A stretch of DNA of 64,000 nucleotides from Eubacteriales bacterium (GCA_045645165.1 JAZRIF010000156.1:552-64551); one strand, 5' to 3'. Numbered from the stretch's first letter, positions 16,460-42,460 are shown. Made by a program: numbers and translations. The notes: generated from the sequence alone by a model not told the origin.

Positions 16460-16488
16460 TTGACTTTGTGGCTCCATTATACTATAAT
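16460..16488 (+). promoter_or_regulatory. Strong sigma-70-type promoter for the Crp/Fnr gene
   Basis: TTGACT (16460-16465) - 17 nt - TATAAT (16483-16488). Confidence 0.7.
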
Positions 16489-16502
16489 AAAAGCAGAAAG
16501 TC

Positions 16503-16518
16503 TGTTGAATTTTCAACA
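16503..16518. promoter_or_regulatory. Perfect 16-bp palindrome TGTTGAATTTTCAACA; candidate Crp/Fnr-family operator
   Basis: The TGTTG-N6-CAACA architecture has the same geometry as CRP/FNR boxes. It lies about 15 nt downstream of the -10 box and 14 nt upstream of the regulator's start codon. Confidence 0.55.
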
Positions 16519-16531
16519 AAACGGAGTTTTT

Positions 16532-17191
16532 ATGAAAAAATATTTGCCCATTCTCCAAAAATCTCCCCTGTTTGCCGCCATTGACCCCGAACAGCTTCTG
16601 TCCCTTTTGACTTGTCTCGGCGGAACTGTCAAAAGCTACGCCCGAGGAGAAACCGTGTTCCGCGAGGGCGACTGCCCCACCCATCTGGGTGTTGTCCTGA
16701 CGGGGGAGGTACACATCACCCGCACCGATTATTACGGAAACCGCAGTATCGTCGCTACCGTTACCGCGCCCCGTTTGTTCGGTGAGACCTTCGCCTGCGC
16801 CGAGGTGGACGCCCTCCCCGTAGATGTGATCGCTTCGGAAAACACCGAGATCCTCATGATCGACATTCACCGCATCACCATGCCCTGTTGTAACGCTTGC
16901 TCCTTCCATCACAGGATCATTTTCAATCTCATGAAGCAGACCGCCGCCAAAAATCTTCTGTTCCACCGCAAGCTGGAGATACTGGCCGGGCGCACCACAC
17001 GGGATAAACTGATGACCTACCTTCTCATGGAGGCCAAGGAGCAGGGAAGCAATACCCTCACCATCCCCTACGACCGCCAGGAGCTGGCGGATTACCTGGA
17101 GGTAGACCGCAGCGGCCTCTCCGCCGAGATCGGCAAGCTCCGACGGGAAGGGGTGCTTACGGCAGAGAAAAACCGGTTTGTGTTGCTCTGA
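16532..17191 (+). CDS. Crp/Fnr-family transcriptional regulator
   Basis: N-terminal cNMP-binding-like beta-roll (LFAAIDPEQL...GETVFREGD) and a C-terminal HTH (RQELADYLEVDRSGLSAEIGKLRREG). I prefer the ATG at 16532 to the TTG at 16448. Confidence 0.85.
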   Translation: MKKYLPILQKSPLFAAIDPEQLLSLLTCLGGTVKSYARGETVFREGDCPTHLGVVLTGEVHITRTDYYGNRSIVATVTAPRLFGETFACAEVDALPVDVIASENTEILMIDIHRITMPCCNACSFHHRIIFNLMKQTAAKNLLFHRKLEILAGRTTRDKLMTYLLMEAKEQGSNTLTIPYDRQELADYLEVDRSGLSAEIGKLRREGVLTAEKNRFVLL

Positions 17192-29126: not shown

Positions 29127-29256
29127 TATGTTAAATTGAATATTTTACAAAACAGAATCAAAATCGAATTTCCATATGAAAAATCTTGATTTTTTCTCTA
29201 TAATATGTTATAATAAAAAAGTATAGGTATATCCAGTTGAGAAAGGAGTCTTGTCC

Positions 29257-30180: not shown

Positions 30181-30390
30181 AATGCAAAAAGGAAGATCAT
30201 TTGTCCTCCTGCCTTCCTGTTTTGTGATCCCGTCATATGTGGTTTTATCTATATGATTCGTTTGTTTATTGATATTCGGCGTATCGATTGGAGTTATATC
30301 GATATGCATAATACCGATATAACATTTTAATTATTCCCAAAAGTAAAAAGATGTGATAGAATATATCCGTACAAACCAAGGAGGTGGCGC

Positions 30391-31020
30391 ATGAACGGAT
30401 ATTCTATTCCTAAAGCAACACTGGGAAGACTTCCGCTGTATGTCCGGTATTTGAAAAACTTGCCCGCCGAGGGCGGCACAACGATCTCGGCTACCGCCAT
30501 AGCCAAGGGGCTTTCTCTGGGCGATGTGCAGGTGCGTAAGGATCTTGCGGCTGTCAGTGGCGCGGGAAAACCCAAAATCGGATACGAACGGGAAAAATTG
30601 ATCTGCGATCTGGAACGTCATCTCGGATATGAGAGGCTGACGAACGCCGTATTGGTCGGTGCAGGGAAGCTCGGAAGAGCGCTTTTGGATTTTGACGGCT
30701 TTGAGGAATTCGGTGTAAAGATCATTGCGGGCTTTGACTGCAATGAACAGGCCATGAAAGTTAGAAAAGGCGCAAAATTCATCCTGCCCATTGAGGATAT
30801 CGGCGGTTACTGTAAAGAACACGACGTAAAGCTGGGGATCATCACGGTGGGGCAAGGCTCCGCCCAGAACGTCTGCGACAAACTGGTGGAAAGCGGGATT
30901 CAAGCCATTTGGAATTTCGCTCCTTGCTCGTTAAAGGTCCCGGACGGCGTGCTTTTGAAGCAGGAAAATCTGGCTCTCTCCCTGGCGTATCTCAATAACC
31001 AAATCAGTAAATCAATATAG
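30391..31020 (+). CDS. rex: Redox-sensing transcriptional repressor Rex
   Basis: IPKATLGRLPLYVRYL winged-helix N-terminus plus the Rossmann motif VLVGAGKLGRAL. 209 aa. Confidence 0.9.
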   Translation: MNGYSIPKATLGRLPLYVRYLKNLPAEGGTTISATAIAKGLSLGDVQVRKDLAAVSGAGKPKIGYEREKLICDLERHLGYERLTNAVLVGAGKLGRALLDFDGFEEFGVKIIAGFDCNEQAMKVRKGAKFILPIEDIGGYCKEHDVKLGIITVGQGSAQNVCDKLVESGIQAIWNFAPCSLKVPDGVLLKQENLALSLAYLNNQISKSI

Positions 31021-31035
31021 GAGGACATAGACAAA

Positions 31036-33732
31036 ATGGAACTCAAAACATATGAAATCGTGGACAGCGTGGAAGCTTTGCAGGACGCAATAGGCCGCGT
31101 CAGAGCTGCCCAAAAGATATTCAGCACGTACACCCAGAAGCAGGTGGATCAGATCTTCCTGGCCGCAGCCACCGCCGCCGATAAAGCACGCATCAGCCTC
31201 GCCAAGCTGGCCGTAGCTGAGACGGGCATGGGCATCGTGGAGGACAAGGTCATCAAGAATCACTACGCCGCTGAGTACATCTACAACGCATACAAGGATA
31301 CCAAGACTTGTGGCGTGATCGAGGAAGACAAAGCCTACGGCATCCAAAAGATTGCCGAGCCCATCGGCGTTATTGCCGCCGTGATTCCCACTACCAATCC
31401 CACCTCTACCGCCATTTTTAAGTGCCTCCTGGCCCTCAAGACCCGTAACGCTATCATCATCTCCCCTCACCCCCGTGCCAAGAACTCCACCATTGCCGCC
31501 GCCAAGCTTATTCTGGAGGCTGCTGTGGCCGCAGGTGCACCCGAGGGCATCATCGACTGGATCGACGTTCCCTCGCTGGACATGACCAATACCGTCATGA
31601 AGGAGGCCGATATCATTCTGGCTACCGGTGGTCCCGGCATGGTCAAGGCCGCTTACTCCAGCGGTAAGCCCGCTCTGGGTGTAGGCGCAGGCAACACCCC
31701 TGCCATCATTGATGAGACCGCTGACATTCTGCTGGCCGTCAACTCCATTATCCACTCCAAGACCTTCGATAACGGTATGATCTGTGCTTCCGAGCAGTCG
31801 GTCATCGTTCTTGAGAGCATTTACGATATGGTCAAGGCCGAGTTTGCTGCCCGCGGTTGTTATTTCCTCAGTCCCGCCGAGACCGAGAAGGTTCGCAAGA
31901 CCATTCTCATCAACGGCGCGTTGAACGCTCGCATCGTAGGTCAGAAGGCTTCTCGTATCGCCGAGCTGGCCGGTGTGACCGTGCCCGCAGGCACCAAGAT
32001 CCTCATTGGTGAAGTGGAAAGCGTGGAGCTGTCTGAAGAATTTGCCCACGAGAAGCTCTCTCCCGTGCTGGCTATGTATAAGGCCAAGACCTTTGCCGAG
32101 GCTCTGGACAAAGCCGACAGACTGGTTGAGGACGGTGGCTTCGGTCATACCTCCTCCCTGTACATCAACGAGATTACCGAAAAGGATAAGTTGGCAGCCT
32201 ATACGTCTCGTATGAGAACCTGCCGCATCCTCGTCAATACTCCCTCCGCCCACGGCGGCATCGGCGACCTGTATAACTTCAAACTCGCACCCTCTTTGAC
32301 TTTGGGTTGCGGCTCTTGGGGTGGTAACAGCGTTTCCGAGAACGTGGGTGTCAAGCACCTGCTCAATATTAAGACTGTGGCCGAGAGGAGAGAGAATATG
32401 CTTTGGTTCAGAACCCCCGAGAAGATTTACATCAAGAAGGGTTGCCTCCCCGTAGCCCTTGACGAGCTCAAAACCGTTCGTGGCGCAAAGAAAGCCTTCA
32501 TTGTCACCGATACCTTCCTGTACGAGAACGGCTATGCCAAGCCCATTACCGATAAACTGGATGAAATGGGCATTCAGCATACGACCTTCTTTAACGTTCA
32601 ACCCGATCCCACTCTGGCCAACGCTACCGAGGGCGCAGCACAGATGAAGGCCTTCCGGCCTGACACCATCATTGCCCTGGGCGGCGGTTCTGCTATGGAT
32701 GCGGCCAAAATCATGTGGGTGCTGTACGAGCATCCCGAGGTTGACTTCATGGACATGGCCATGCGCTTCATCGACATCCGAAAGCGCATCTACACCTTCC
32801 CCAAGATGGGTGAGAAGGCTTACTTTATCGCCATTCCCACCTCTGCCGGTACGGGCTCCGAGGTTACTCCCTTTGCGGTCATTACGGATGAGAAGACGGG
32901 CATCAAGTACCCGCTGGCCGACTATGAGCTTCTGCCCAATATGGCCATCATCGACACGGATTTCCATATGTCCGCCCCCAAGGGTCTGACCGCCGCTTCG
33001 GGTATCGACGCCGTGACCCACGCCGTGGAGGCCTACGCCGCCATGCTGGCTACCGACTATACCGATGGTCTGGCACTCCAGGCACTCAAGAACATCTTTA
33101 AGTACCTCCCTCGCGCCTATGACAACGGCCAGACCGACGTGGAGGCTCGCGAGAAGATGGCCAATGCCGCTACCATTGCCGGTATGGCCTTCGCCAACGC
33201 CTTCCTGGGCATCTGTCACTCCATGGCCCATAAGCTTGGCGCATTCCATCACCTGCCCCACGGCGTGGCCAACGCGCTGATGATCGAGGAAGTACTTCGC
33301 TTCAACGCTTTCGAGGCTCCCGCCAAGATGGGTACCTTCTCCCAGTACGATCATCCTCACACCTTGACTCGCTACGCCGAGATCGCCGATCATTTGAATC
33401 TGGGCGGTGTTACGGAGGAGGAGAAGCTGGAGAATCTCATCAAGGCCATCAATGATCTCAAGGCCCGCGTAGGCATCAAGGCTACCATCAAGGATTATGG
33501 CATTGACGAGGCTGATTTCCTGGCTCGTCTGGATGACATGGTGGAGCAGGCCTTCGATGATCAGTGCACCGGTGCCAACCCCCGCTATCCTCTCATGAGC
33601 GAGATCAAGCAGATGTACCTCAACGCCTACTACGGGAACCATTTCGTAGAGGCGGATATGCCCCCTGTGGTGCTGACCGTAGATGCTCCCGATGCCATCA
33701 AGGCTCCCTATCACAAGGGCAAAAGAGCTTAA
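31036..33732 (+). CDS. adhE: Bifunctional acetaldehyde-CoA / alcohol dehydrogenase
   Basis: 898 aa, with an N-terminal ALDH domain and a C-terminal iron-ADH domain (GGGSAMDAAK, HSMAHKLG). It starts 15 nt after rex. Confidence 0.95.
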   Translation: MELKTYEIVDSVEALQDAIGRVRAAQKIFSTYTQKQVDQIFLAAATAADKARISLAKLAVAETGMGIVEDKVIKNHYAAEYIYNAYKDTKTCGVIEEDKAYGIQKIAEPIGVIAAVIPTTNPTSTAIFKCLLALKTRNAIIISPHPRAKNSTIAAAKLILEAAVAAGAPEGIIDWIDVPSLDMTNTVMKEADIILATGGPGMVKAAYSSGKPALGVGAGNTPAIIDETADILLAVNSIIHSKTFDNGMICASEQSVIVLESIYDMVKAEFAARGCYFLSPAETEKVRKTILINGALNARIVGQKASRIAELAGVTVPAGTKILIGEVESVELSEEFAHEKLSPVLAMYKAKTFAEALDKADRLVEDGGFGHTSSLYINEITEKDKLAAYTSRMRTCRILVNTPSAHGGIGDLYNFKLAPSLTLGCGSWGGNSVSENVGVKHLLNIKTVAERRENMLWFRTPEKIYIKKGCLPVALDELKTVRGAKKAFIVTDTFLYENGYAKPITDKLDEMGIQHTTFFNVQPDPTLANATEGAAQMKAFRPDTIIALGGGSAMDAAKIMWVLYEHPEVDFMDMAMRFIDIRKRIYTFPKMGEKAYFIAIPTSAGTGSEVTPFAVITDEKTGIKYPLADYELLPNMAIIDTDFHMSAPKGLTAASGIDAVTHAVEAYAAMLATDYTDGLALQALKNIFKYLPRAYDNGQTDVEAREKMANAATIAGMAFANAFLGICHSMAHKLGAFHHLPHGVANALMIEEVLRFNAFEAPAKMGTFSQYDHPHTLTRYAEIADHLNLGGVTEEEKLENLIKAINDLKARVGIKATIKDYGIDEADFLARLDDMVEQAFDDQCTGANPRYPLMSEIKQMYLNAYYGNHFVEADMPPVVLTVDAPDAIKAPYHKGKRA

Positions 33733-33750
33733 TCAAAGGAGGAATGAATC

Positions 33751-34509
33751 ATGAATCTGGATCGAGTGATTGCAGTCAGAAACAATAAAACCGTCTACCG
33801 TGACGGCGACCGTTGCGTGAAGGTATTCAATGCAGAATACTCCAAGGCAGACGTCCTGAGCGAAGCTCTTAACCAGGCTCGTATCGAAGAAACGGGTCTG
33901 CATATTCCCAAGGTGTTGGAAGTCACCATGATTGAGGGAAAGTGGGCGATCGTTTCCGAATACATCAAGGGTAAGACGCTGGCTCAACTGATTGCCGAGA
34001 CCGGTGACGATACCGACAAGAGAAATGAGTATATCAATCTTCTTGTGGATATCCAGATGGGGATACACGGAAAGACCTGTCCTCTCCTGAATAAGCTGAA
34101 GGACAAGATGAGCCGCAAGATCTCCGAGACCGAGTTTGATGCGACCACCCGCTATGATCTCCACACCCGCCTGGAGTCCATGCCCAAGCATAATAAGGTC
34201 TGCCACGGCGATTTCAATCCTTCCAACGTCATTATCGCCGAGGATGGTACTCCTTACGTTTTGGATTGGTCTCACGCCACGCAGGGTAACGCCTCTGCCG
34301 ACGTAGCCCGCACGTACCTTTTGTTTTGGCTGAGCGGCGACAGTGCCTCCGCAGAATATTACCTGAATACTTTCTGCGAAAAGAGCGGTACCGCCAAACA
34401 GTACGTGCAGAAGTGGATGCCCATCGTGGCCGCTTCCCAGTCCGTCAAGGGTAACGAGCAAGAGCGCGAGTTTCTTATGAGCTGGGTCAACGTTGTTGAT
34501 TATCAGTAA
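33751..34509 (+). CDS. Small kinase-fold protein (aminoglycoside-phosphotransferase/CotS-like), putative protein kinase
   Basis: Catalytic-loop HGDFNPSNVI and metal-binding LDWSHA motifs. 252 aa. AAGGAGG RBS 18 nt after adhE. Confidence 0.7.
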   Translation: MNLDRVIAVRNNKTVYRDGDRCVKVFNAEYSKADVLSEALNQARIEETGLHIPKVLEVTMIEGKWAIVSEYIKGKTLAQLIAETGDDTDKRNEYINLLVDIQMGIHGKTCPLLNKLKDKMSRKISETEFDATTRYDLHTRLESMPKHNKVCHGDFNPSNVIIAEDGTPYVLDWSHATQGNASADVARTYLLFWLSGDSASAEYYLNTFCEKSGTAKQYVQKWMPIVAASQSVKGNEQEREFLMSWVNVVDYQ

Positions 34510-34528
34510 TCGGAACGTGAGAATGCAC

Positions 34529-34558
34529 GGGGAAAACTTCCTACAAGAGGTTTTCCCC
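34529..34558 (+). other. T-less stem-loop between the kinase and ferredoxin genes (possible attenuator or processing site)
   Basis: GGGGAAAAC / GTTTTCCCC stem with no U-tract. The arm sequence resembles the hairpin at 15594-15625. Confidence 0.35.
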
Positions 34559-34625
34559 TATCCCGCTTCAAGAACTTTCAAAAATACAACAAATAAAACA
34601 GAAAATGAATATGCGAGGTAAAAAT

Positions 34626-34868
34626 ATGCTGAAAATTACGGTTTGTATCGGTAGCTCCTGCCACATCAAGGGTTCGCGTCAGGTCGTCGCGCAGTTGCAG
34701 CGCTTGATCGCTGAGCATAATCTCGGTGAGAAGGTTGAACTTGGCGGCACCTTCTGCATGGGTAAGTGCCAGCAGGGTGTGTGTGTCACCGTAGATGACA
34801 CCTTCCACTCAGTCTCCCCTGACACGGTGGAAGAATTCTTCGCCAATGAAATTCTTGCAAAGGTTTAA
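34626..34868 (+). CDS. Thioredoxin-like [2Fe-2S] ferredoxin (NuoE/HndA-like), copy 1
   Basis: CIGSSCH...CMGKC four-Cys pattern. The ATG at 34626 lies 6 nt after GAGGT. Confidence 0.75.
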   Translation: MLKITVCIGSSCHIKGSRQVVAQLQRLIAEHNLGEKVELGGTFCMGKCQQGVCVTVDDTFHSVSPDTVEEFFANEILAKV

Positions 34869-34880
34869 GAGGTAACGATT

Positions 34881-35144
34881 ATGCTGTTCGTTCAGGTTTG
34901 TGTTGGTTCGTCTTGCCATATCAAGGGTTCTGCCGATATCGTGGTGCTTTTGGAGAAAGCCGTGGAGGAACATCACCTTGAGGACGAGGTCGTGCTTTCG
35001 GGTAGCTTCTGTATCGGAAAGTGTAACCGCGTCGGCGTGACCATTCAGGTAAACGATGACGTTTTCGTTGGCGTGACGAGAGAGAATTTCAATGAATTCT
35101 TTACGAAAAATATTCTTGACGTGATTGAGAAGGAAAGGATGTGA
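34881..35144 (+). CDS. Thioredoxin-like [2Fe-2S] ferredoxin (NuoE/HndA-like), copy 2
   Basis: CVGSSCH...CIGKC pattern. It is a paralog of the preceding ORF. Confidence 0.75.
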   Translation: MLFVQVCVGSSCHIKGSADIVVLLEKAVEEHHLEDEVVLSGSFCIGKCNRVGVTIQVNDDVFVGVTRENFNEFFTKNILDVIEKERM

Positions 35145-36829
35145 TGATTGTGGCTAACTGCTTGACGCTCAAAAAATCCAACTGTAAGAACTGCTATAAG
35201 TGTGTTCGGCACTGTCCTGTAAAGGCCATTCGCTTTTCGGGGAACCAAGCTCACATCATCGGCAATGAGTGCATTCTGTGCGGTCATTGTTTTGTCGTTT
35301 GTCCTCAGAATGCCAAGGAGATTGTAGACGGCACCGAAAAGGCGCGGGTTCTGCTTCAGAGCGGTGCCCCCGTTTACGTGAGCCTGGCGCCCTCTTTTAT
35401 CGCCAACTACGAAGGTGTCGGCATCGAGTCCATGCGCCGCGCTTTGCAAAAACTGGGCTTTGCTGACGTGGAGGAGACCGCCATTGGCGCTACGATTGTT
35501 AAGACCGAGTACGAGCGTATGCTTCGCGAGGAACAGAGAGATATCATCATCACCTCCTGCTGTCACTCGATTAACCTTCTGATCCAAAAATATTTCCCCG
35601 GTTGCTTGGAGTATTTGGCTGACGTTATGTCGCCTATGCAGGCGCACTGTGCAGCCATCAAGACAAGAAATCCGGAGGCTAAGACCGTGTTCATCGGTCC
35701 TTGCGTGGCCAAAAAGGACGAGGCAGAGTACTATGAAGGTATCGTGGATGCTGTCCTCACGTTTGAAGAGCTGACCAACTGGTTTAAGGCCGAAGGAATA
35801 GAGCTTGAGCAAGAGCTGGACAATACCTCCGCAAGCCGCGCTCGCTTTTTCCCGACGACAGGTGGTGTTCTGAAGACTATGGCTCAGGATGCTTCCAAAT
35901 ATACATATCTCGCACTGGATGGTGTGGAAAACTGTATTGCAGCCCTTAAGGATATTGAGAGCGGTAAGATCCACAAGTGCTTCATCGAAATGTCTGCCTG
36001 CGTGGGTAGCTGCATCGGTGGTCCCGTCATGGAGAAGTATCACAGAAGTTCTCCGATCAAAGACTATGTGACCGTTGCAGGTTACGCGGGAGAGCGTGAT
36101 TTTGACGTGAAACAGCCCGCTCCCATGAGCCTCAAAAAGAACTTTACCATGATCGCGCATAAACTCACGCAGCCCTCTGAGACGGAGATCATGTCGGTAC
36201 TCCGTCAGATGGGCAAATTCAAGCCCTCCGACGAGCTGAACTGCGGTACCTGTGGCTATAATTCCTGCCGTGAAAAGGCAATCGCCATCATTCATGGCAA
36301 GGCCGAGGCCTCCATGTGCCTGCCCAACTTGTTGGATAAGGCCGAGAGTTTCTCGGATACCATCGTTCGCAATACCCCCTATGGCCTCATTGTGCTGAAT
36401 GAGAACCTGGAGGTTCAGCAGGTCAATCGCGCCGCCCGTAAGATCATGAACATTCGCTCCTCCTCCGATGTGCTGGGTGAGCCTGTGATCCGTATTTTGG
36501 ATCCCACCGTATTCTCTCAGGTCATGGGTAGTGGTCGTAGTGTGCGGGACCAGCGAGTCTATCTTGCCGAGTACAAGAAGTACGTGGAGCAGACCGTGGT
36601 CTACGACCCCGATTCTCACCTCTTGGTAGGTATTATGCGGGACATTACGGATGACGAGGCTGAGCGAGAAAAGAAGGCTCGCATCAATAAGCAGACTGTT
36701 GAGGTTGCGGATACCGTGGTGGAAAAGCAGATGCGTATCGTACAGGAGATCGCGTCCCTCTTGGGCGAGACGGCCGCTGAAACCAAGATCGCCCTGACCA
36801 AGCTAAAGGAGTCTATCGGCGATGAATGA
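35144..36829 (+). CDS. hydS: Sensory-type [FeFe]-hydrogenase homolog (HydS-like) with a C-terminal Cys cluster and a PAS-like domain
   Basis: N-terminal 2x[4Fe-4S] motifs (CKNCYKCVRHCP, CILCGHCFVVCP). H-cluster-like motifs TSCCH, GPCVAKK and EMSACVGSCIGGP. An extra CGTCGYNSC...C cluster and a ~130-aa C-terminal PAS-like region. The start overlaps the upstream stop (TGATG). Confidence 0.75.
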   Translation: MIVANCLTLKKSNCKNCYKCVRHCPVKAIRFSGNQAHIIGNECILCGHCFVVCPQNAKEIVDGTEKARVLLQSGAPVYVSLAPSFIANYEGVGIESMRRALQKLGFADVEETAIGATIVKTEYERMLREEQRDIIITSCCHSINLLIQKYFPGCLEYLADVMSPMQAHCAAIKTRNPEAKTVFIGPCVAKKDEAEYYEGIVDAVLTFEELTNWFKAEGIELEQELDNTSASRARFFPTTGGVLKTMAQDASKYTYLALDGVENCIAALKDIESGKIHKCFIEMSACVGSCIGGPVMEKYHRSSPIKDYVTVAGYAGERDFDVKQPAPMSLKKNFTMIAHKLTQPSETEIMSVLRQMGKFKPSDELNCGTCGYNSCREKAIAIIHGKAEASMCLPNLLDKAESFSDTIVRNTPYGLIVLNENLEVQQVNRAARKIMNIRSSSDVLGEPVIRILDPTVFSQVMGSGRSVRDQRVYLAEYKKYVEQTVVYDPDSHLLVGIMRDITDDEAEREKKARINKQTVEVADTVVEKQMRIVQEIASLLGETAAETKIALTKLKESIGDE

Positions 36830-37994
36830 TTTGTGCGCAGATATTGGCTATAAAAGCATCAATCATGTAGGTGAGGAGCTTTGCGGTGACCACGTGGATG
36901 TGGTGGAAGAAAACGAAAACTCCACTGTGATCGTGCTGGCAGACGGTCTTGGATCGGGCGTGAAAGCGAGTATTCTTTCCACCCTGACCTCCAAGATTAT
37001 TTCCACCATGATGGCGGCAGGCCTTCCCATCGAGGAGTGCGTGTCCACCATCGCCGCCACCCTGCCCGTTTGCTCGGTGCGTGGGGTAGCGTACTCCACA
37101 TTTACCATTATGCATATTCAGAATAACGAGACGGCAGAGATCATTCAGTACGATAATCCTCACGTCATCGTCATTCGGGATTACCAACAGTACGATTATC
37201 CCAAGACCGAAATGAATATCGGTGGCAAAAAGATTTACAAATCCACCATTCGCCTGCAAGAGGATGATGTGTTCATCGCCATGAGCGCCGGCTGTCCCCA
37301 TGCCGGCATGGGCGGTAAATACAACTTTGGTTGGAAGCGTGAGGAGATCGCAGGCTTCATGCAAGCGCTCGTAGCCGGCGGATATACTGCGAAGAATCTT
37401 TCCACCATGCTGGTAGACGAGTGTGACAAGCTCTACGGTCACAAGCCCGGTGACGACACTACCGCCTGCGTGGTCAAGATCCGTAAGCGCGAGCCTATGA
37501 ATATTCTGTTCGGTCCCCCCTCCAACCGAGACGATGCGGGACGCATGATGTCTCTGTTCTTCTCTAAAGAAGGGAAGCACATCATCTGTGGCGGCACTAC
37601 GTCCTCCATCGCTGCCAAGTACCTGGGCAAAAAGGTGCAGGTCAGCTTGAGCTTCGAGCGGAGCGATATTCCTCCCATTGCCTACATCGAGGGCGTGGAT
37701 CTGGTGACGGAAGGTGTTATCACCATGAATAAAGTCATTCAGTACGCTAAGGACTACTTGGGAGAGAACGCTCTCTACGAGGACTGGAATTTCAAGAAGG
37801 ACGGCGCATCTCTCATCAGCCGTTTGTTGTTTGAGGAAGCCACCGATATCAATTTCTACGTGGGCAGAGCCGTCAACCCCGCCCACCAGAATCCCGACCT
37901 CCCCATTAACTTCAACATTAAGATGAACCTTGTTGAGGAGCTTTCGGAATGCTTGAGAAAAATGGGTAAACGTATTAAGGTCAGTTATTTTTAA
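36822..37994 (+). CDS. PP2C/SpoIIE-family protein serine/threonine phosphatase with a C-terminal extension
   Basis: GDHVDV...VLADGLGSGVKASILS motif. 8-nt overlap with hydS. Confidence 0.75.
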   Translation: MNDLCADIGYKSINHVGEELCGDHVDVVEENENSTVIVLADGLGSGVKASILSTLTSKIISTMMAAGLPIEECVSTIAATLPVCSVRGVAYSTFTIMHIQNNETAEIIQYDNPHVIVIRDYQQYDYPKTEMNIGGKKIYKSTIRLQEDDVFIAMSAGCPHAGMGGKYNFGWKREEIAGFMQALVAGGYTAKNLSTMLVDECDKLYGHKPGDDTTACVVKIRKREPMNILFGPPSNRDDAGRMMSLFFSKEGKHIICGGTTSSIAAKYLGKKVQVSLSFERSDIPPIAYIEGVDLVTEGVITMNKVIQYAKDYLGENALYEDWNFKKDGASLISRLLFEEATDINFYVGRAVNPAHQNPDLPINFNIKMNLVEELSECLRKMGKRIKVSYF

Positions 37995-38004
37995 GGAGAA
38001 AATC

Positions 38005-39441
38005 ATGCGTAAATTCGACACAAAAGTTCAGCACTTAAAGTATAAAGTACTTCGTGAAGTGGCTCGTCTCGCGTGGGAAGACAAGCTTCTCGAGAATATG
38101 ATGGATATTCCCAAAAAGCTGGCTCCCGGAAAAGAACCTACCATGCGTTGCTGTGTTTACAAGGAGCGCGCTATTCTGGGGGAGCGCGTCAAACTGGCCA
38201 TGGGCGGCGACAAGGAGAATCCCAACGTCATTGAGGTTATTGAGATCGCTTGTGACGAGTGTCCCGTCGGCGGCTACGAGGTTACCAACGCCTGCCGTGG
38301 CTGTCTCGCTCACCGTTGCGAGGATGTCTGCAAATTCGGCGCACTGACCTTCGATCGTGACCATGTGGCTCACATTGATAAATCTAAGTGTAAGGAGTGC
38401 GGTGCCTGTGCTAAGGTCTGCCCCTTCACCGCCATTGTTCATCGCAAGCGTCCTTGCCAGAACGCTTGTAAGGTCAAGGCTATCTCCATGAATGAGGAAA
38501 AAGCGGCCAAGATCGACAACTCCAAGTGCATCCAGTGCGGCGCTTGCGTATACCAGTGTCCTTTCGGTGCGATTACCGACAAGTCCTTCATGCTCAACGC
38601 CATTGACATTCTCAAGAAGAGCGAACGCAACACCCGCGGCGGCAACTACAAGGTCTACGCCGTTGTGGCTCCCTCTATCTCCAGCCAGTTCTCTTATGCC
38701 AAACTGGGCCAGGTCATCACAGGCCTGAAGAAGCTGGGCTTCCACGACGTGATCGAGGCGGCTCTGGGCGCGGATATGGTAGCCATGGCCGAGGCTAAAG
38801 AGCTTTCCGAAAAGGGACTGCTCACCAGTTCCTGCTGTCCTGCCTTTGTACAGTACATCAAGGCGAACTTCCCCAATCTCGTGGAGCACATTTCTCACAA
38901 TATGTCGCCCATGGCTGTGCTGGCTAAGTACATCAAGGAAACCACACCCAATTCCAAAGTTATCTTCATCGGTCCCTGTACTGCCAAGAAGGCTGAGGCA
39001 CAGCTGGAGTCGGTCAAGCCTTGGGTGGATACCGTTCTCACCTTTGAAGAACTGCAGGCGCTTTTCGATAGTCGCGATTTCGACCTGTCTACTTTTGAGG
39101 AGGGCGTGTTGGATAATGCTTCCTACTTCGGCCGTATCTTCGCTCGAAGCGGCGGTCTGACCGATGCGGCAGTACAGGCAATGAAGGAGCAGAATATCGA
39201 CTTCGAGATCAAGCCCGTTGTTTGCGACGGTATTGAAGCCTGCCGTATGGCGCTTCTCAAGCTCAGTAAGAGCCAGGCCGCTCTGGGCGGAAACTTCATC
39301 GAGGGTATGGCCTGTGTTGGCGGTTGTATCAACGGTGCGGGATGCCTGACCCATGGTGAGAAGAACAAGGCAGACGTGGATAAATACGGTCGTGAGGCTT
39401 TTGAGAAGAACATCACCGATGCAATCTCTCTGCTGAAATAA
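38005..39441 (+). CDS. hydA: Monomeric [FeFe]-hydrogenase (ferredoxin-dependent, group-B-like)
   Basis: Multiple CxxCxxCxxxCP clusters. H-cluster motifs TSSCCP, GPCTAKK and GMACVGGCINGAG. AAGGAG RBS. Confidence 0.85.
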   Translation: MRKFDTKVQHLKYKVLREVARLAWEDKLLENMMDIPKKLAPGKEPTMRCCVYKERAILGERVKLAMGGDKENPNVIEVIEIACDECPVGGYEVTNACRGCLAHRCEDVCKFGALTFDRDHVAHIDKSKCKECGACAKVCPFTAIVHRKRPCQNACKVKAISMNEEKAAKIDNSKCIQCGACVYQCPFGAITDKSFMLNAIDILKKSERNTRGGNYKVYAVVAPSISSQFSYAKLGQVITGLKKLGFHDVIEAALGADMVAMAEAKELSEKGLLTSSCCPAFVQYIKANFPNLVEHISHNMSPMAVLAKYIKETTPNSKVIFIGPCTAKKAEAQLESVKPWVDTVLTFEELQALFDSRDFDLSTFEEGVLDNASYFGRIFARSGGLTDAAVQAMKEQNIDFEIKPVVCDGIEACRMALLKLSKSQAALGGNFIEGMACVGGCINGAGCLTHGEKNKADVDKYGREAFEKNITDAISLLK

Positions 39442-39534: not shown

Positions 39535-39575
39535 ATCCCGACGATCCTCAAGCAGAGAATCGTCGGGATTTTTGG
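39535..39575 (+). terminator. Intrinsic terminator ending the rex-hydA gene string
   Basis: ATCCCGACGAT / ATCGTCGGGAT 11-bp stem followed by TTTTT. Confidence 0.8.
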
Positions 39576-39669: not shown

Positions 39670-39698
39670 TTGAAATTTTGCAAAAATTGTGGTATACT
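39670..39698 (+). promoter_or_regulatory. Sigma-70-type promoter for the phosphatase-lipoprotein gene
   Basis: TTGAAA - 17 nt (ending in TGG) - TATACT. Confidence 0.55.
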
Positions 39699-39751: not shown

Positions 39752-42460
39752 ATGAAGAAACTTGTTAGAGTTATATCTGTCCTGTCAATTGCCGGGTTTG
39801 TTCTGACATCGTGCGCCTGTACAGGGAATGAAACGGATGATACAGAATCGAATACCTCCGCTTCTACGGAACCCGTGTCCTCTTCCAAGACCGAAACCGA
39901 CGAATCGCTGCCCAAGCCCGAGCGTGAGGTCTACCAGGATCTTTCCTTTGAAGTGCCTGCCTATGCGGATCCGGGAACAAAAACCTGCACGGTACAAACC
40001 GAGGGAACGGGCGATTCCGGCCAAGTCAAATTGGATTTCACCGCGACCAATGGATCGTATGTCATCTCCTCTACGAAAATCGGCTTCAGCTGTCACGATG
40101 TGGCCGCGTGCACGGATTGCGGCTACGTGGACACCGAGGATGGCGGTGCATATCTCATGTCCTCCAAGGGCTTGGATCAGGGTGGCGTTACGGTAACCCT
40201 GGCGACCCCCATCCTGGCATCCTCCGTGACGGGCATGACCTTGACGTTCAAAACAACGGCCGAAGCCGCGAGCAGTTCCATGCGTATCCTTCCGACAGCG
40301 GAGACCAACAACGCCGCCTTCGTCAACTCCTGCGCTTCCATGGCAGGGGCTACGAAAAAATGGGTTACGGTGGATCTCGGTATGGAGGATTTCGCGGATA
40401 TCGCGGACAGCGACGGCTATATTCGCGGATTTCAAATGTACTTCCGCAACAAGAACAAAGCCGATTGCTATGTGCAGAGCATCGATTTTACCATCAATCC
40501 GGACAAATTCCTACTCGTTGACGAAGTCATTGGAAATTGTTTCTATCAGCAAGGTGCCGTAGATGCGATTGCCGAAATGATCGCGTCTCGCCTTACCTCT
40601 GCCGATATTCGGGCAGAGATCGTCGTAACCGGTGCGTCCTATCGAAAAAACACCACTACCTCCGCAGGCTCTTTGAGATACAAGGTAACCGCAACCATGC
40701 CTGATGGTACCAAGGTGGTGCAGCAGCACACGGCCGTGATTCCCGCCATTACGGGGGCGTGGCTGGATACCTCGGACGGCCAATACGGCGCGTCCCACGA
40801 CTCCATGGGCCAATGGCAAGAGACCTTTGACCCAAGCGGCATTCTGTTTTTGACCGACAATCGCCTTACCTGCGCGGAAGGGATAGATCGCATAGAGTAC
40901 GCCGTCATCGGAAAAGATACCAAATTTGACGATGAAGCGATCACGTGGCTGATGCCGCAAATGCTCGACATGAACGAAACCGGCTTTTCTCATATGCTGG
41001 TCAACGCTTTCATGGACATGAATGATGCCCTCATCGAAGGAGAGACCTACCGTCTGCTGGTGCGGGGCGTGACCCAACGGGACAATTACATACTCCACAT
41101 TGATATCCCCTTCGTGTATTCTACGCTCTCCAAGGAGGCCACGGAGCTGCTGGAGGCCGCAGGAAAAGCTGTAGAAGGTGCGGATTTCATTTGCGCTGAG
41201 TCCGTCGAGGATAAGGTAGGGTTCGTGCGGGATCAACTTTCCACGCTGATTCAAAACGAAAGTGTTGCCGTTGACGTGACTGTGTTGGGAGAGGGTGTTC
41301 ATTCTCTGCGCTTGCGGGTAGCTCTGCGATGCGTGACCGAAATCTCCGAGGCTCGCCTGCCCACGTATATCTTGAACGGAGAAAAGATCATGGACGTTTA
41401 CAATTACGAAGGTCGCGCTTTCCTTTATGAGGACGTGACGATACCGTATACCGACGAGAAAAGCAGCCTTTCTCTGATCTCTCCTTACGACGGAGATTCC
41501 CACGTTATTTTGGCTGCCGATTGCATTTGCGACCACGCTAAGGCTCCGCTTTCTGATATAGAGAATCCGAATTACGGATATATGCAGGGCGAGCATTGCA
41601 CCCCGCCTCCTGTCAGCCTTGTCTGGTCGGATGCAAAGGGGACGAAAGGGAAGCAATATACGGTTTGCATCTCTACCAACCGGGATATGAGCCACGCTCA
41701 GGAAATCATCGTGACCGATACCTGTGCTGATGTATACAATTTGAATGTTGGTACCCAATATTTCTGGCAGGTGAGATCGGAGGATGAGGCCTCCCTCGTG
41801 CAGACCTTTACAACCGAGGTGGGTTATCCTCGTTTTATCAAGCTGGACGGTGTCTCCAACGTGCGGGATATTGGCGGCTATATCACCGTGGACGGTAAGC
41901 GGGTCAAACAGAATCTGGCCTACCGCTCCGCCCAACTGGAGAGCATTACCGCTGAGGGCTTGGCGGTTGCCTTGCATCAACTGAATATTCGCACGGATCT
42001 TGACCTGCGCGGGGGATCCACTACTCCCTTGGGTCAGACTGTGCAACATATTTCTGTCCCTATGCAATGGTACGAGCATATTTTTGAGGAGGAGATGCAC
42101 GCAGCTGTTCGCAAAACCGTCGCAACCTTCGCATACAAGGAAAATTATCCCATCCTGTTCCACTGCTCCATGGGACGTGACCGCACCGGAACGACGGCGT
42201 TTTTGATCCTCGGACTTCTTGGGGTGGATGAGGATACCCTGCGACATGAATATTACGCGTCCTTCTTCTCCCAGCAGGGTGCTTTTGATGAAGCCGAATT
42301 CTCCCTGCTCATCATCAACATGAACCGATTGGTGAAGGGCTTTGATGAATACGGCGATGCCGACGATACGCTTCAAGAAAAGATTCAGTCCTACTTGCTC
42401 CACATCGGTGTCACCGAGGCTGAAATTCAAAGTATTCGGGAAATTTGGTTAGAGTCGTAA
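39752..42460 (+). CDS. Large lipoprotein with a C-terminal CX5R tyrosine-phosphatase-like (Y_phosphatase3-type) domain
   Basis: Signal peptide plus lipobox (VLTSCAC). About 650 aa of unassigned beta-rich sequence. The C-terminal domain carries NVRDIGG...LDLRG...FHCSMGRDRTGT. Confidence 0.75.
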   Translation: MKKLVRVISVLSIAGFVLTSCACTGNETDDTESNTSASTEPVSSSKTETDESLPKPEREVYQDLSFEVPAYADPGTKTCTVQTEGTGDSGQVKLDFTATNGSYVISSTKIGFSCHDVAACTDCGYVDTEDGGAYLMSSKGLDQGGVTVTLATPILASSVTGMTLTFKTTAEAASSSMRILPTAETNNAAFVNSCASMAGATKKWVTVDLGMEDFADIADSDGYIRGFQMYFRNKNKADCYVQSIDFTINPDKFLLVDEVIGNCFYQQGAVDAIAEMIASRLTSADIRAEIVVTGASYRKNTTTSAGSLRYKVTATMPDGTKVVQQHTAVIPAITGAWLDTSDGQYGASHDSMGQWQETFDPSGILFLTDNRLTCAEGIDRIEYAVIGKDTKFDDEAITWLMPQMLDMNETGFSHMLVNAFMDMNDALIEGETYRLLVRGVTQRDNYILHIDIPFVYSTLSKEATELLEAAGKAVEGADFICAESVEDKVGFVRDQLSTLIQNESVAVDVTVLGEGVHSLRLRVALRCVTEISEARLPTYILNGEKIMDVYNYEGRAFLYEDVTIPYTDEKSSLSLISPYDGDSHVILAADCICDHAKAPLSDIENPNYGYMQGEHCTPPPVSLVWSDAKGTKGKQYTVCISTNRDMSHAQEIIVTDTCADVYNLNVGTQYFWQVRSEDEASLVQTFTTEVGYPRFIKLDGVSNVRDIGGYITVDGKRVKQNLAYRSAQLESITAEGLAVALHQLNIRTDLDLRGGSTTPLGQTVQHISVPMQWYEHIFEEEMHAAVRKTVATFAYKENYPILFHCSMGRDRTGTTAFLILGLLGVDEDTLRHEYYASFFSQQGAFDEAEFSLLIINMNRLVKGFDEYGDADDTLQEKIQSYLLHIGVTEAEIQSIREIWLES

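Follow-up and report, generated by a model that had tools for sequence, protein, structure and literature searches.

A rex–adhE–kinase–hydS–PP2C–hydA gene cluster of an uncultured Oscillospirales bacterium as a new copy of a known fermentation module, and candidate elements of its control

Ruminococcus albus 7 reportedly possesses, in the account of Zheng et al. 2014, a cluster of genes for Rex, AdhE, a kinase, two ferredoxins, HydS, a PP2C phosphatase and HydA2, and a gene string of the same kind occupies positions 30391–39441 of the DNA analysed here, a stretch of 64,000 nucleotides (nt) from a Eubacteriales bacterium (GCA_045645165.1 JAZRIF010000156.1:552-64551), which is called the window below. 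A “putative eight-gene cluster” of R. albus 7 was expressed 111-fold lower in low-H2 co-culture with an H2 consumer (Greening et al. 2019, PMC6776011), and its control via H2 sensing by HydS together with the phosphatase has been proposed, after Zheng et al. 2014 (PMC6776011; also PMC10838669, PMC5707799). In Thermoanaerobacterium saccharolyticum and T. thermosaccharolyticum the hfsABCD operon likewise combines a small Fe-S protein, HydS with a PAS domain (HfsB), a phosphatase (HfsC) and a ferredoxin-linked hydrogenase (HfsD), but by the published descriptions it contains no rex, adhE or kinase gene. HfsC is a Ser phosphatase and HfsD resembles HydA2 (PMC11837493), while deletion of hfsB raises ethanol yield (PMC5707799, PMC11837493). 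For Acetivibrio thermocellus (Clostridium thermocellum), genes Cthe_0422-0430 (the Clo1313_1799-1791 region) were found to be co-regulated as one block (PMC3848806), and the products of Cthe_0425-0426 (ferredoxin and HydS) were assigned to the class “dimeric sensory hydrogenase”, C D(M2f) (PMC3561251). The spectroscopically characterised member of group C is TmHydS of Thermotoga maritima. An analogy from the literature is offered by HoxBC-HoxJ-HoxA of Cupriavidus necator, where a low-activity hydrogenase and a PAS-type transducer govern hydrogenase expression; the proteins are, however, unrelated, and a [NiFe] enzyme with a histidine kinase and response regulator stands there in place of an [FeFe] enzyme with PP2C and a kinase of the APH fold.

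Within 30391–39441 the listing of open reading frames (ORFs) gives eight genes on the same strand, rex, adhE, kinase, fdxA, fdxB, hydS, pp2c and hydA (Table 1), with spacings of 15, 18, 116, 12, −1, −8 and 10 nt in the order from rex to hydA. The same distances had been given in a sequence-only reading of this DNA made earlier, and every gene identity assigned in it is backed by Pfam and NCBIfam. Its count of nine co-directional genes is one too many for this interval: the ninth conserved gene of this direction, encoding a LysR-type regulator, is situated just outside, immediately upstream of rex, where that reading had overlooked it. On plasmid pRUMAL01 of R. albus 7, in which the HydS ortholog was located by protein search of the plasmid records, the genes for LysR, Rex, AdhE, kinase, two ferredoxins, HydS, PP2C and HydA2 follow each other in the same order, being annotated as LysR, Rex, AdhE, a “phosphotransferase” of 249 amino acids (aa), two (2Fe-2S) ferredoxin-domain proteins, the large subunit of an [Fe-Fe] hydrogenase, a SpoIIE phosphatase and a 478-aa hydrogenase. 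The parallel with R. albus 7 drawn in the sequence-only reading holds gene for gene at 50–79% protein identity (Rex 50%, fdxB 55%, HydS 68%, kinase 72.5%, HydA 74%, AdhE 75%, fdxA 76% and PP2C 79%), and extends to the HydS motifs (S/T)SCCH, GPC..KK, EMSAC.GSC and Cx2Cx4Cx16C with the PAS domain, to a PP2C of ~390 aa and to the 478 aa of HydA2. Some features differ between the two loci. The gap between kinase and fdxA is only 17 nt long in R. albus but 116 nt with a hairpin in the window, two ATCGAT units are present there as opposed to three to four here, and the host of the window cluster is an uncultured gut or rumen bacterium of the Clostridia/Oscillospirales. The nearest metagenome-assembled genomes, in which HydS is up to 89% identical, are labelled Clostridia, Eubacteriales, Acutalibacteraceae or “Ruminococcus”.

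A close relative of HydS is encoded by more than 585 GTDB species, the module being very common in uncultured gut Oscillospirales, and among 80 related loci fetched around HydS homologues the fdx-fdx-hydS-pp2c-hydA core is preserved in essentially all, so that the synteny is not a product of chance. Since the match to the R. albus 7 cluster is gene for gene, the window represents a new copy of a known and widely distributed system. It is the Oscillospirales/Ruminococcus version of the “high-H2 fermentation module”, and its orthology with the module of R. albus, C. thermocellum and hfs is nearly certain. An H2/redox-sensing relay wired to ethanol and H2 production, as suggested for this string from the sequence, is a reasonable reading, which is not new because it coincides with the hypothesis already published for this cluster (PMC6776011, PMC5707799, PMC11837493). 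As the R. albus ortholog responds ~111-fold to low-H2 co-culture, the refutation envisaged there, independent transcription with no response to H2, is inapplicable.

The same arrangement beside adhE in A. thermocellus (CP013828, locus L092, 1996-13251) had escaped the earlier reading and was reached here through the look-up of a distant PP2C homologue. The order rex-adhE-kinase-fdx-hydS-pp2c is retained in this locus, its kinase (249 aa) is 71% identical to that of the window, the same divergent Rex paralog is encoded, and a repeat array is found 5′ of rex, in the form of four ATATCGATA units placed directly 3′ of a consensus promoter. In contrast to the window, A. thermocellus has one ferredoxin gene, a trimeric bifurcating NuoE/NuoF/HydA (hydCBA) hydrogenase and no lysR gene upstream.

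Table 1. Features of the cluster and its flanks in the window
Feature	Coordinates	Strand	Basis and remarks
lysR, LysR-type transcriptional regulator, 309 aa	29251..30180	+	HTH_1 1.3e-17; promoter-like site 29186-29214
Four-hexamer array ATTGAT, ATCGAT, ATCGAT, ACCGAT	30268..30318	.	exact 15-bp spacing, 5′ of -35
Operon promoter-like site	30334..30362	+	-35 TTCCCA 30334-30339, extended -10 TGnTAGAAT 30354-30362; scanner match
rex, Rex-family redox-sensing repressor, 209 aa	30391..31020	+	NF003994 equivalog, 237.8 bits vs 130
adhE, bifunctional acetaldehyde-CoA/alcohol dehydrogenase, 898 aa	31036..33732	+	Pfam Aldedh, Fe-ADH and ADH_Fe_C
kinase, APH-fold, 252 aa	33751..34509	+	Pfam APH PF01636, 3e-14, 53.8 bits vs cut-off 23.2
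Stem-loop of 12 bp, no U-run, in the 116-nt kinase-fdxA gap	34529..34558	+	folding
fdxA, thioredoxin-like [2Fe-2S] ferredoxin A, 80 aa	34626..34868	+	Pfam PF01257 (2Fe-2S_thioredx), Cx4C...Cx3C
fdxB, thioredoxin-like [2Fe-2S] ferredoxin B, 87 aa, paralog of fdxA	34881..35144	+	Pfam PF01257, Cx4C...Cx3C
hydS, putative sensory [FeFe]-hydrogenase, 562 aa	35144 (or GTG 35141)..36829	+	Pfam, motifs
pp2c, SpoIIE/RsbU-type Ser/Thr phosphatase, 390 aa	36822..37994	+	Pfam SpoIIE
hydA, monomeric [FeFe]-hydrogenase, HydA2/HfsD type, group B, 478 aa	38005..39441	+	TIGR04105
Intrinsic terminator	39535..39573	+	11-bp GC-rich stem; five-T run starting at the stem's last base

The sensory architecture ascribed to HydS from its H-cluster motifs, additional C-terminal Cys cluster and PAS domain is confirmed by the domain analysis. 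Two [4Fe-4S] clusters, the H-domain, a Cx2Cx4Cx16C cluster, PAS and a C-terminal helical tail follow each other in this order, with Pfam matches to the Fer4 family at residues 11-58, to Fe_hyd_lg_C (3.6e-53) and to PF04060 FeS (1.8e-9); the PAS domain passes narrowly (24.8 bits vs the cut-off of 22.6), and the C-terminal cluster is exact (CGTCGYNSC, then C 16 residues on). Aligned to the Desulfovibrio large subunit, motifs L1, L2 and L3 read TSCCH, GPCVAKK and EMSACVGSC, and thereby carry the replacements M353→G (in GPCVAKK) and M497→S (in EMSAC), which together with S319→A distinguish the protein from that subunit. The domain order, M353→G and M497→S are shared with TmHydS (PMC8163306). The difference from the latter concerns C299, the proton-relay Cys reported lost in M2f/M2e sensors (PMC8163306), as judged from this published statement: the TSCC motif of the window protein keeps an equivalent Cys (aligned to Desulfovibrio C178), and (S/T)SCCH occurs in 90 of 93 HydS homologues from PP2C-linked clusters, all 93 of which have GPC[VI][AS]KK and EMS[AS]CxGSC. 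Since this Cys is kept, a purely non-catalytic role of HydS is not assured and some turnover is possible. The scores against catalytic NCBIfam models stay below the cut-offs (B1, 218 vs 450 bits; A, 88 vs 406). In the HydDB scheme phosphatase-linked sensory [FeFe]-hydrogenases form subtype C3 (PMC5037454), and linkage to a PP2C gene, that is the context defining C3, is what we find for the gene of the window. A homologue from Acetoanaerobium (37% identical) was set aside as a member of a different subgroup, with TSSCP and no PP2C nearby.

The overlap of hydS with the PP2C/SpoIIE gene had been seen before and amounts to 8 nt. Overlaps of a few nt are found in all related loci having both genes, pointing to coupled translation and a complex of 1:1 stoichiometry. 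The start of fdxA was set by a conserved ribosome-binding site and ATG on comparison with relatives. Its product is likely the small subunit of the “dimeric” sensory hydrogenase, and the second ferredoxin is present in most relatives, though not in all (A. thermocellus and Monoglobus have a single copy).

The AlphaFold2 model of PP2C, built with 95 sequences (predicted local distance difference test, pLDDT, 87.5; predicted template modelling score, pTM, 0.85), consists of two parts, the PP2C domain at residues 1-222 and a compact alpha/beta domain at residues 225-390 (window 37494-37994). Top Foldseek matches of the model were SpoIIE, RsbU and RsbX. The metal-binding Asp residues are invariant in the family alignment, and judging by sequence the catalytic core is intact. 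The family comprises at least 8000 members with a constant length of 389-391 aa; those aligned, including Monoglobus- and Acetivibrio-type sequences, are 57-94% identical to the PP2C of the window. The C-terminal domain is highly conserved, GGT(TS) being invariant where a strand passes into a helix, and yet it found no match in Pfam, either as a single sequence or with 21 members, and no significant one in profile searches against PDB, where the best were 3k6q (E = 0.05) and the SIS protein 3trj (E = 0.09-0.3). Foldseek with the whole model returned PP2C matches only, among the 50 rows listed. Two identities tried for this domain by hhalign were rejected: STAS gave a probability of 0.1% with SpoIIAA, and SIS gave 2.9% with GmhA, which is not convincing. 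In the structural proximity of its PP2C domain to SpoIIE, RsbU and RsbX the locus is similar to partner-switching modules composed of a SpoIIE/RsbU PP2C, a STAS protein and a GHKL kinase. It differs from them in that Pfam detects neither a STAS protein nor a GHKL kinase in the cluster and the linked kinase has the APH fold; the earlier remark that no STAS or anti-sigma partner is encoded agrees with the absence of such Pfam matches among the cluster proteins.

That the kinase is APH/CotS-like and not of the Hanks type is borne out by the score of PF01636, whereas Pkinase reaches 19 bits and remains below its gathering score of 31.7. Residues K24, E38, H152-G-D154, N159 and D172 of the catalytic site are invariant in the family alignment, so that the protein is predicted to be an active phosphotransferase, of a fold class dominated by small-molecule kinases. 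The earlier reading had named a small-molecule kinase at this place as a refutation of its view, and the fold decides neither for nor against it. Some APH-fold proteins are protein kinases. The top Foldseek matches of its AlphaFold2 model (pLDDT 87.7) were APH(3′)-Ia (E ~1e-8), APH(4)-Ia, YtaA and methylthioribose (MTR) kinase with a template modelling score of ~0.5-0.6, and no Hanks kinase appeared among the 50 rows listed. By sequence the best PDB match was the choline kinase LicA, and the best NCBIfam match was the uncharacterised TIGR02172, far under its cut-off, followed by weak thiamine-kinase and APH matches. About 3300 members were counted in the kinase family, with 315 clusters at 50% clustering (E ≤ 1e-30), nearly all of ~250 aa.

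Occurrence of the kinase was scored in the 64 hydS-anchored loci with enough upstream sequence, and four further contexts were taken with kinase homologues as the starting point. The kinase gene adjoins the module in 40 of the 64, and adhE is never found in hydS-anchored loci without it. In all four kinase-anchored contexts it stands directly 5′ of fdx-fdx-hydS-pp2c-hydA, the leading genes being lysR alone, lysR with a phosphoesterase gene and rex, rex with adhE, and adhE alone. Its 71% identity between the window and A. thermocellus, that is across orders, is to be compared with 52% for HydS and 51% for Rex. Based on these comparisons one can regard the kinase as belonging specifically to the module, with conservation reaching from Ruminococcus to C. 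thermocellum. The phospho-target was earlier supposed to be Rex, AdhE or HydA. Because the kinase is present in clusters without adhE, without rex or without both, neither AdhE nor Rex can be a general target, while HydA stays a candidate. In some variants a gene for a YfcE-like metallophosphoesterase (Metallophos_2) is inserted between lysR and rex or the kinase gene (L058 5946-6566, L086 1801-2349 and L087 572-1120), which is a third phospho-related enzyme of this neighbourhood.

Candidates for the control of transcription are the Rex and LysR proteins. The Rex protein contains the winged-helix domain Put_DNA-bind_N and the Rossmann NADH domain CoA_binding, with GxGxxG kept as GAGKLG. Its identity to the adhE-linked Rex of A. 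thermocellus is 51%, and that to Rex of B. subtilis 31%; the segment “VQVRKDLAAVSGAGKPKIGY” stands in place of “IRRDFSYFG...”. By these features it is a divergent adhE-linked paralog. In C. thermocellum a canonical Rex binding TTGTTAA-N4-TTAACAA and a second, divergent Rex with no known motif have been described (PMC8457756). The LysR protein scores 27.7 bits with LysR_substrate, just short of the cut-off of 28. In ~30 related loci, that of R. albus 7 (RUMAL_RS17345) among them, an ortholog is encoded directly 5′ of the cluster, also where rex, or adhE and the kinase gene, are lacking.

The intergenic regions of relatives share a fixed layout, with a dyad of the TTATC-N6-GATAA type at about −66, a −35 element ATTCCCA and conserved spacing. 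A perfect or near-perfect Rex box TGTTAAAATATTAACA covers the −10 element in at least 20 related loci; the equivalent position of the window is degenerate, the box having decayed. The rex gene is identified as such (NF003994), but wiring of this cluster through Rex is uncertain, the operon having no canonical operator at up to two mismatches and the protein being a divergent paralog. A Rex-pattern match with two mismatches at 16503 was rejected, as it is the box of a Crp/Fnr regulator. In this region (16461-17188, + strand) a near-consensus promoter TTGACT-17-TATAAT is followed by the perfect palindrome TGTTGAATTTTCAACA (16503-16518), located 13 nt 5′ of the start of a Crp/Fnr-family gene (cNMP_binding and HTH_Crp_2) and probably serving as an autoregulatory Crp/Fnr box.

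Upstream of the rex promoter the window contains instead the hexamer array of Table 1, outside which AYCGAT-N9-AYCGAT has no match in the 64 kb. Pairs with the 15-bp spacing are found 5′ of 16 of the 20 rex-first clusters as opposed to 2 of 54 others (Fisher p ~1e-10, for loci that are not phylogenetically independent). The region of the array includes the dyad TTATATCGATATGCATAA (30294-30311), centred at about −66 from the inferred start of transcription, and aligns with the TTATC-N6-GATAA dyad of loci of the lysR-adhE type. A LysR recognition site is usually placed at about −66. Assignment of the array to LysR only was nevertheless rejected, since arrays exist 5′ of rex with no lysR nearby and track the presence of rex. 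Such are L046, where the upstream ORFs were read, L053, L064 and L067, which gave no lysR match, and A. thermocellus. Comparison of the sequences makes the ATCGAT array a likely operator for the divergent Rex encoded in the cluster. Further AYCGAT-N9-AYCGAT pairs were met in relatives away from the rex promoter, at L008 12381-12401 (just after hydA), L005 3324-3344, L081 646-666 and L076 6663-6683; these may possibly be additional targets of the same factor.

The strong terminator predicted earlier after hydA corresponds to a hairpin with a folding energy of −27.6 kcal/mol (z = −5.9), which none of 200 shuffled sequences reached; the simple scanner gave no call for it, its loop being more than 8 nt long. 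Another structure is predicted between kinase and fdxA, where the 91-nt segment 34510-34600 containing the stem-loop folds with −22.1 kcal/mol (z = −3.4). Relatives have hairpins of differing sequence at the same position. The hairpin of the window is a candidate for a partial terminator or a processing or stabilising element, which would set rex-adhE-kinase and the hydrogenase genes as two dosage units.

HydA scores 567.5 bits with the FeFe_hydrog_B1 model TIGR04105, above the curated cut-off of 450, and presumably depends on ferredoxin; its R. albus ortholog is labelled group A1 in PMC6776011, the naming being different between schemes. Ten related clusters that have no adhE contain an additional ~1 kb between pp2c and hydA (L002, L005, L007, L018, L044, L046, L056, L066, L071 and L080). 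The insert of L005 (10864-11811) encodes L-lactate dehydrogenase; it was the only one read, the others being recognised by the same ~1-kb gap. Such an insert would, judging from its sequence, give the unchanged regulatory module a different NADH sink. What recurs is the sensor with PP2C and, in most cases, the kinase, accompanied by a hydrogenase and a dehydrogenase that consumes NADH. At high H2 the disposal of NADH via a bifurcating hydrogenase fails, so that an NADH sink and a ferredoxin-only outlet for H2 are needed, and the variant gene content fits this published physiology.

From these data and the work on orthologs a scheme can be proposed, in which the cluster would be expressed as H2 builds up and switched off during syntrophic co-culture, providing an NADH sink (AdhE, to ethanol) and a ferredoxin-only hydrogenase. 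HydS with its small [2Fe-2S] subunit or subunits would bind H2 or turn it over slowly, and the state of the H-cluster would be passed through the C-terminal [4Fe-4S] cluster and PAS to the translationally coupled PP2C. The phosphatase and the dedicated APH-fold kinase would then fix the phosphorylation state of one target, for which co-occurrence suggests HydS, the ferredoxins, the C-terminal domain of PP2C, HydA or a transcription factor, and not AdhE or Rex. Transcription would start from the promoter 5′ of rex under control of LysR, acting via the dyad near −66, and of Rex-family proteins, using in most relatives the Rex box over −10 and in the window, where this box has decayed, the phased ATCGAT array as the likely operator of the divergent Rex. 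As a whole this sense-and-phospho-switch model seems to us somewhat more probable than not. A narrower claim joins the divergent Rex acting with LysR on a 15-bp-phased ATCGAT array (no Rex box) and the dedicated APH-fold kinase opposed to a PP2C with the alpha/beta C-terminal domain into a new H2-reporting Ser/Thr switch free of STAS, Hanks and GHKL partners, and in this joint form we find it doubtful.

Several observations weigh against the proposed switch. The signalling chain has no demonstrated step in any organism, and a 2024 review calls the transduction mechanism unknown (PMC11376134). The loss of the proton-relay Cys C299, a defining feature of sensors, is not seen in HydS of the window. 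By Foldseek the fold of the kinase comes closest to APH-family small-molecule kinases, and PP2C is found with no adjacent kinase in 24 of the 64 informative loci, for example in Monoglobus; both weaken the pairing of the kinase with PP2C, which stays unproven. A scan of fdxA, fdxB, HydS, PP2C and HydA revealed no Ser/Thr position conserved only in kinase-containing clusters. At the level of transcription, a hairpin conserved 3′ of the kinase gene may divide the operon, and no canonical Rex box was found in or near the window operon, either as the 18-mer with up to 3 mismatches or as the 16-nt core TGTTAA/TGTGAA-N4-TTAACA/TTCACA with up to 2. The roles of LysR and of the ATCGAT array come from comparative genomics, and in the window the dyad and the array overlap.

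Some of these points gain a different meaning if the APH-fold protein is a small-molecule kinase acting on a metabolite or cofactor, and PP2C is served by a kinase encoded elsewhere or by other phosphorylation. All top structural matches, namely aminoglycoside, hygromycin, CotS/YtaA and methylthioribose kinases, would agree with that, as would LicA and the distant TIGR02172, and the PP2C family is far larger than that of the kinase and often has no kinase gene adjacent. However, the latter gene stands beside the sensor module in every sampled context with no genes of a small-molecule pathway along with it, and its cross-order identity, higher than that of HydS, is unusual for a peripheral enzyme and suggests protein-protein constraints. 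We consider this explanation rather unlikely. Regulation might also be incidental altogether, with HydS, the ferredoxins, PP2C and HydA forming one multi-subunit Hfs hydrogenase, with HydS as a subunit for slow catalysis or for electron transfer. This was the original view of hfsABCD as “the main hydrogenase”, and it would account for the proton-relay Cys kept in 90 of 93 PP2C-linked homologues, for tight overlaps and spacing, which suggest a stoichiometric complex, and for the lower hydrogenase activity and H2 production after deletion of the whole hfs operon (PMC5707799). Deletion of hfsB alone, however, raises hydrogenase activity and shifts flux (PMC5707799), and hfsD expressed alone restores the phenotype (PMC11837493). 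Besides, the PAS domain, PP2C, M353→G and M497→S are those of the low-activity sensor TmHydS (PMC8163306), and in A. thermocellus the hydS-pp2c pair precedes a different, bifurcating hydrogenase, so that a single Hfs complex appears quite improbable.

A further alternative concerns the division of labour between the two levels of control. Canonical Rex boxes over the −10 element of at least 20 related clusters, as well as the conserved lysR gene and dyad, are what one would expect if transcription were governed purely by NADH through Rex proteins and LysR, these responding to redox or a metabolite, and HydS, PP2C and the kinase tuned enzymes post-translationally, HydA or, where present, AdhE. 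Changes of alcohol and aldehyde dehydrogenase (ADH/ALDH) activities in T. saccharolyticum that do not track adhE transcripts give a hint of post-transcriptional control in the same direction (PMC5707799). On the other hand, the window operon lacks a canonical Rex box, the response of R. albus follows the level of H2 (PMC6776011), and kinase clusters without adhE exist, which removes AdhE as a general target. Purely NADH-driven transcription is, therefore, unlikely in our estimation, and the switch set by H2 through HydS, PP2C and the kinase is retained as the preferred scheme.

H2 sensing and the switch between acetate with H2 and ethanol or lactate in gut and rumen fermenters bear on methane mitigation and on strains for biofuels, and how sensory [FeFe]-hydrogenases transduce their signal is acknowledged to be open (PMC11376134). 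The window adds no new system; the comparison it initiated narrows the search, as neither AdhE nor Rex need be considered any longer as a general phospho-target, and the LysR-type regulator and ATCGAT array become concrete trans and cis candidates for the transcriptional output. Questions concerning the whole family are better addressed in C. thermocellum, for which genetics exist, or in R. albus 7 than in the uncultured host.

The flanks of the cluster contain other genes of the same direction. The next one downstream (39752-42460, + strand) has its own promoter-like site (39670-39698) and encodes a protein of 902 aa whose N-terminus is hydrophobic and whose C-terminal domain resembles tyrosine phosphatases (Y_phosphatase3, 1e-34). 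Residues 1-690 found no match in Pfam and the whole protein none in NCBIfam, and none of the related loci compared has its gene near the cluster. On the other side, 5′ of lysR, the segment 26731-29083 (+ strand) encodes an ABC transporter ATPase, an ABC-2 permease, a small LytTR DNA-binding protein and a DUF3021 membrane protein, and its G+C content falls to 43-47% as compared with 50-58% elsewhere.

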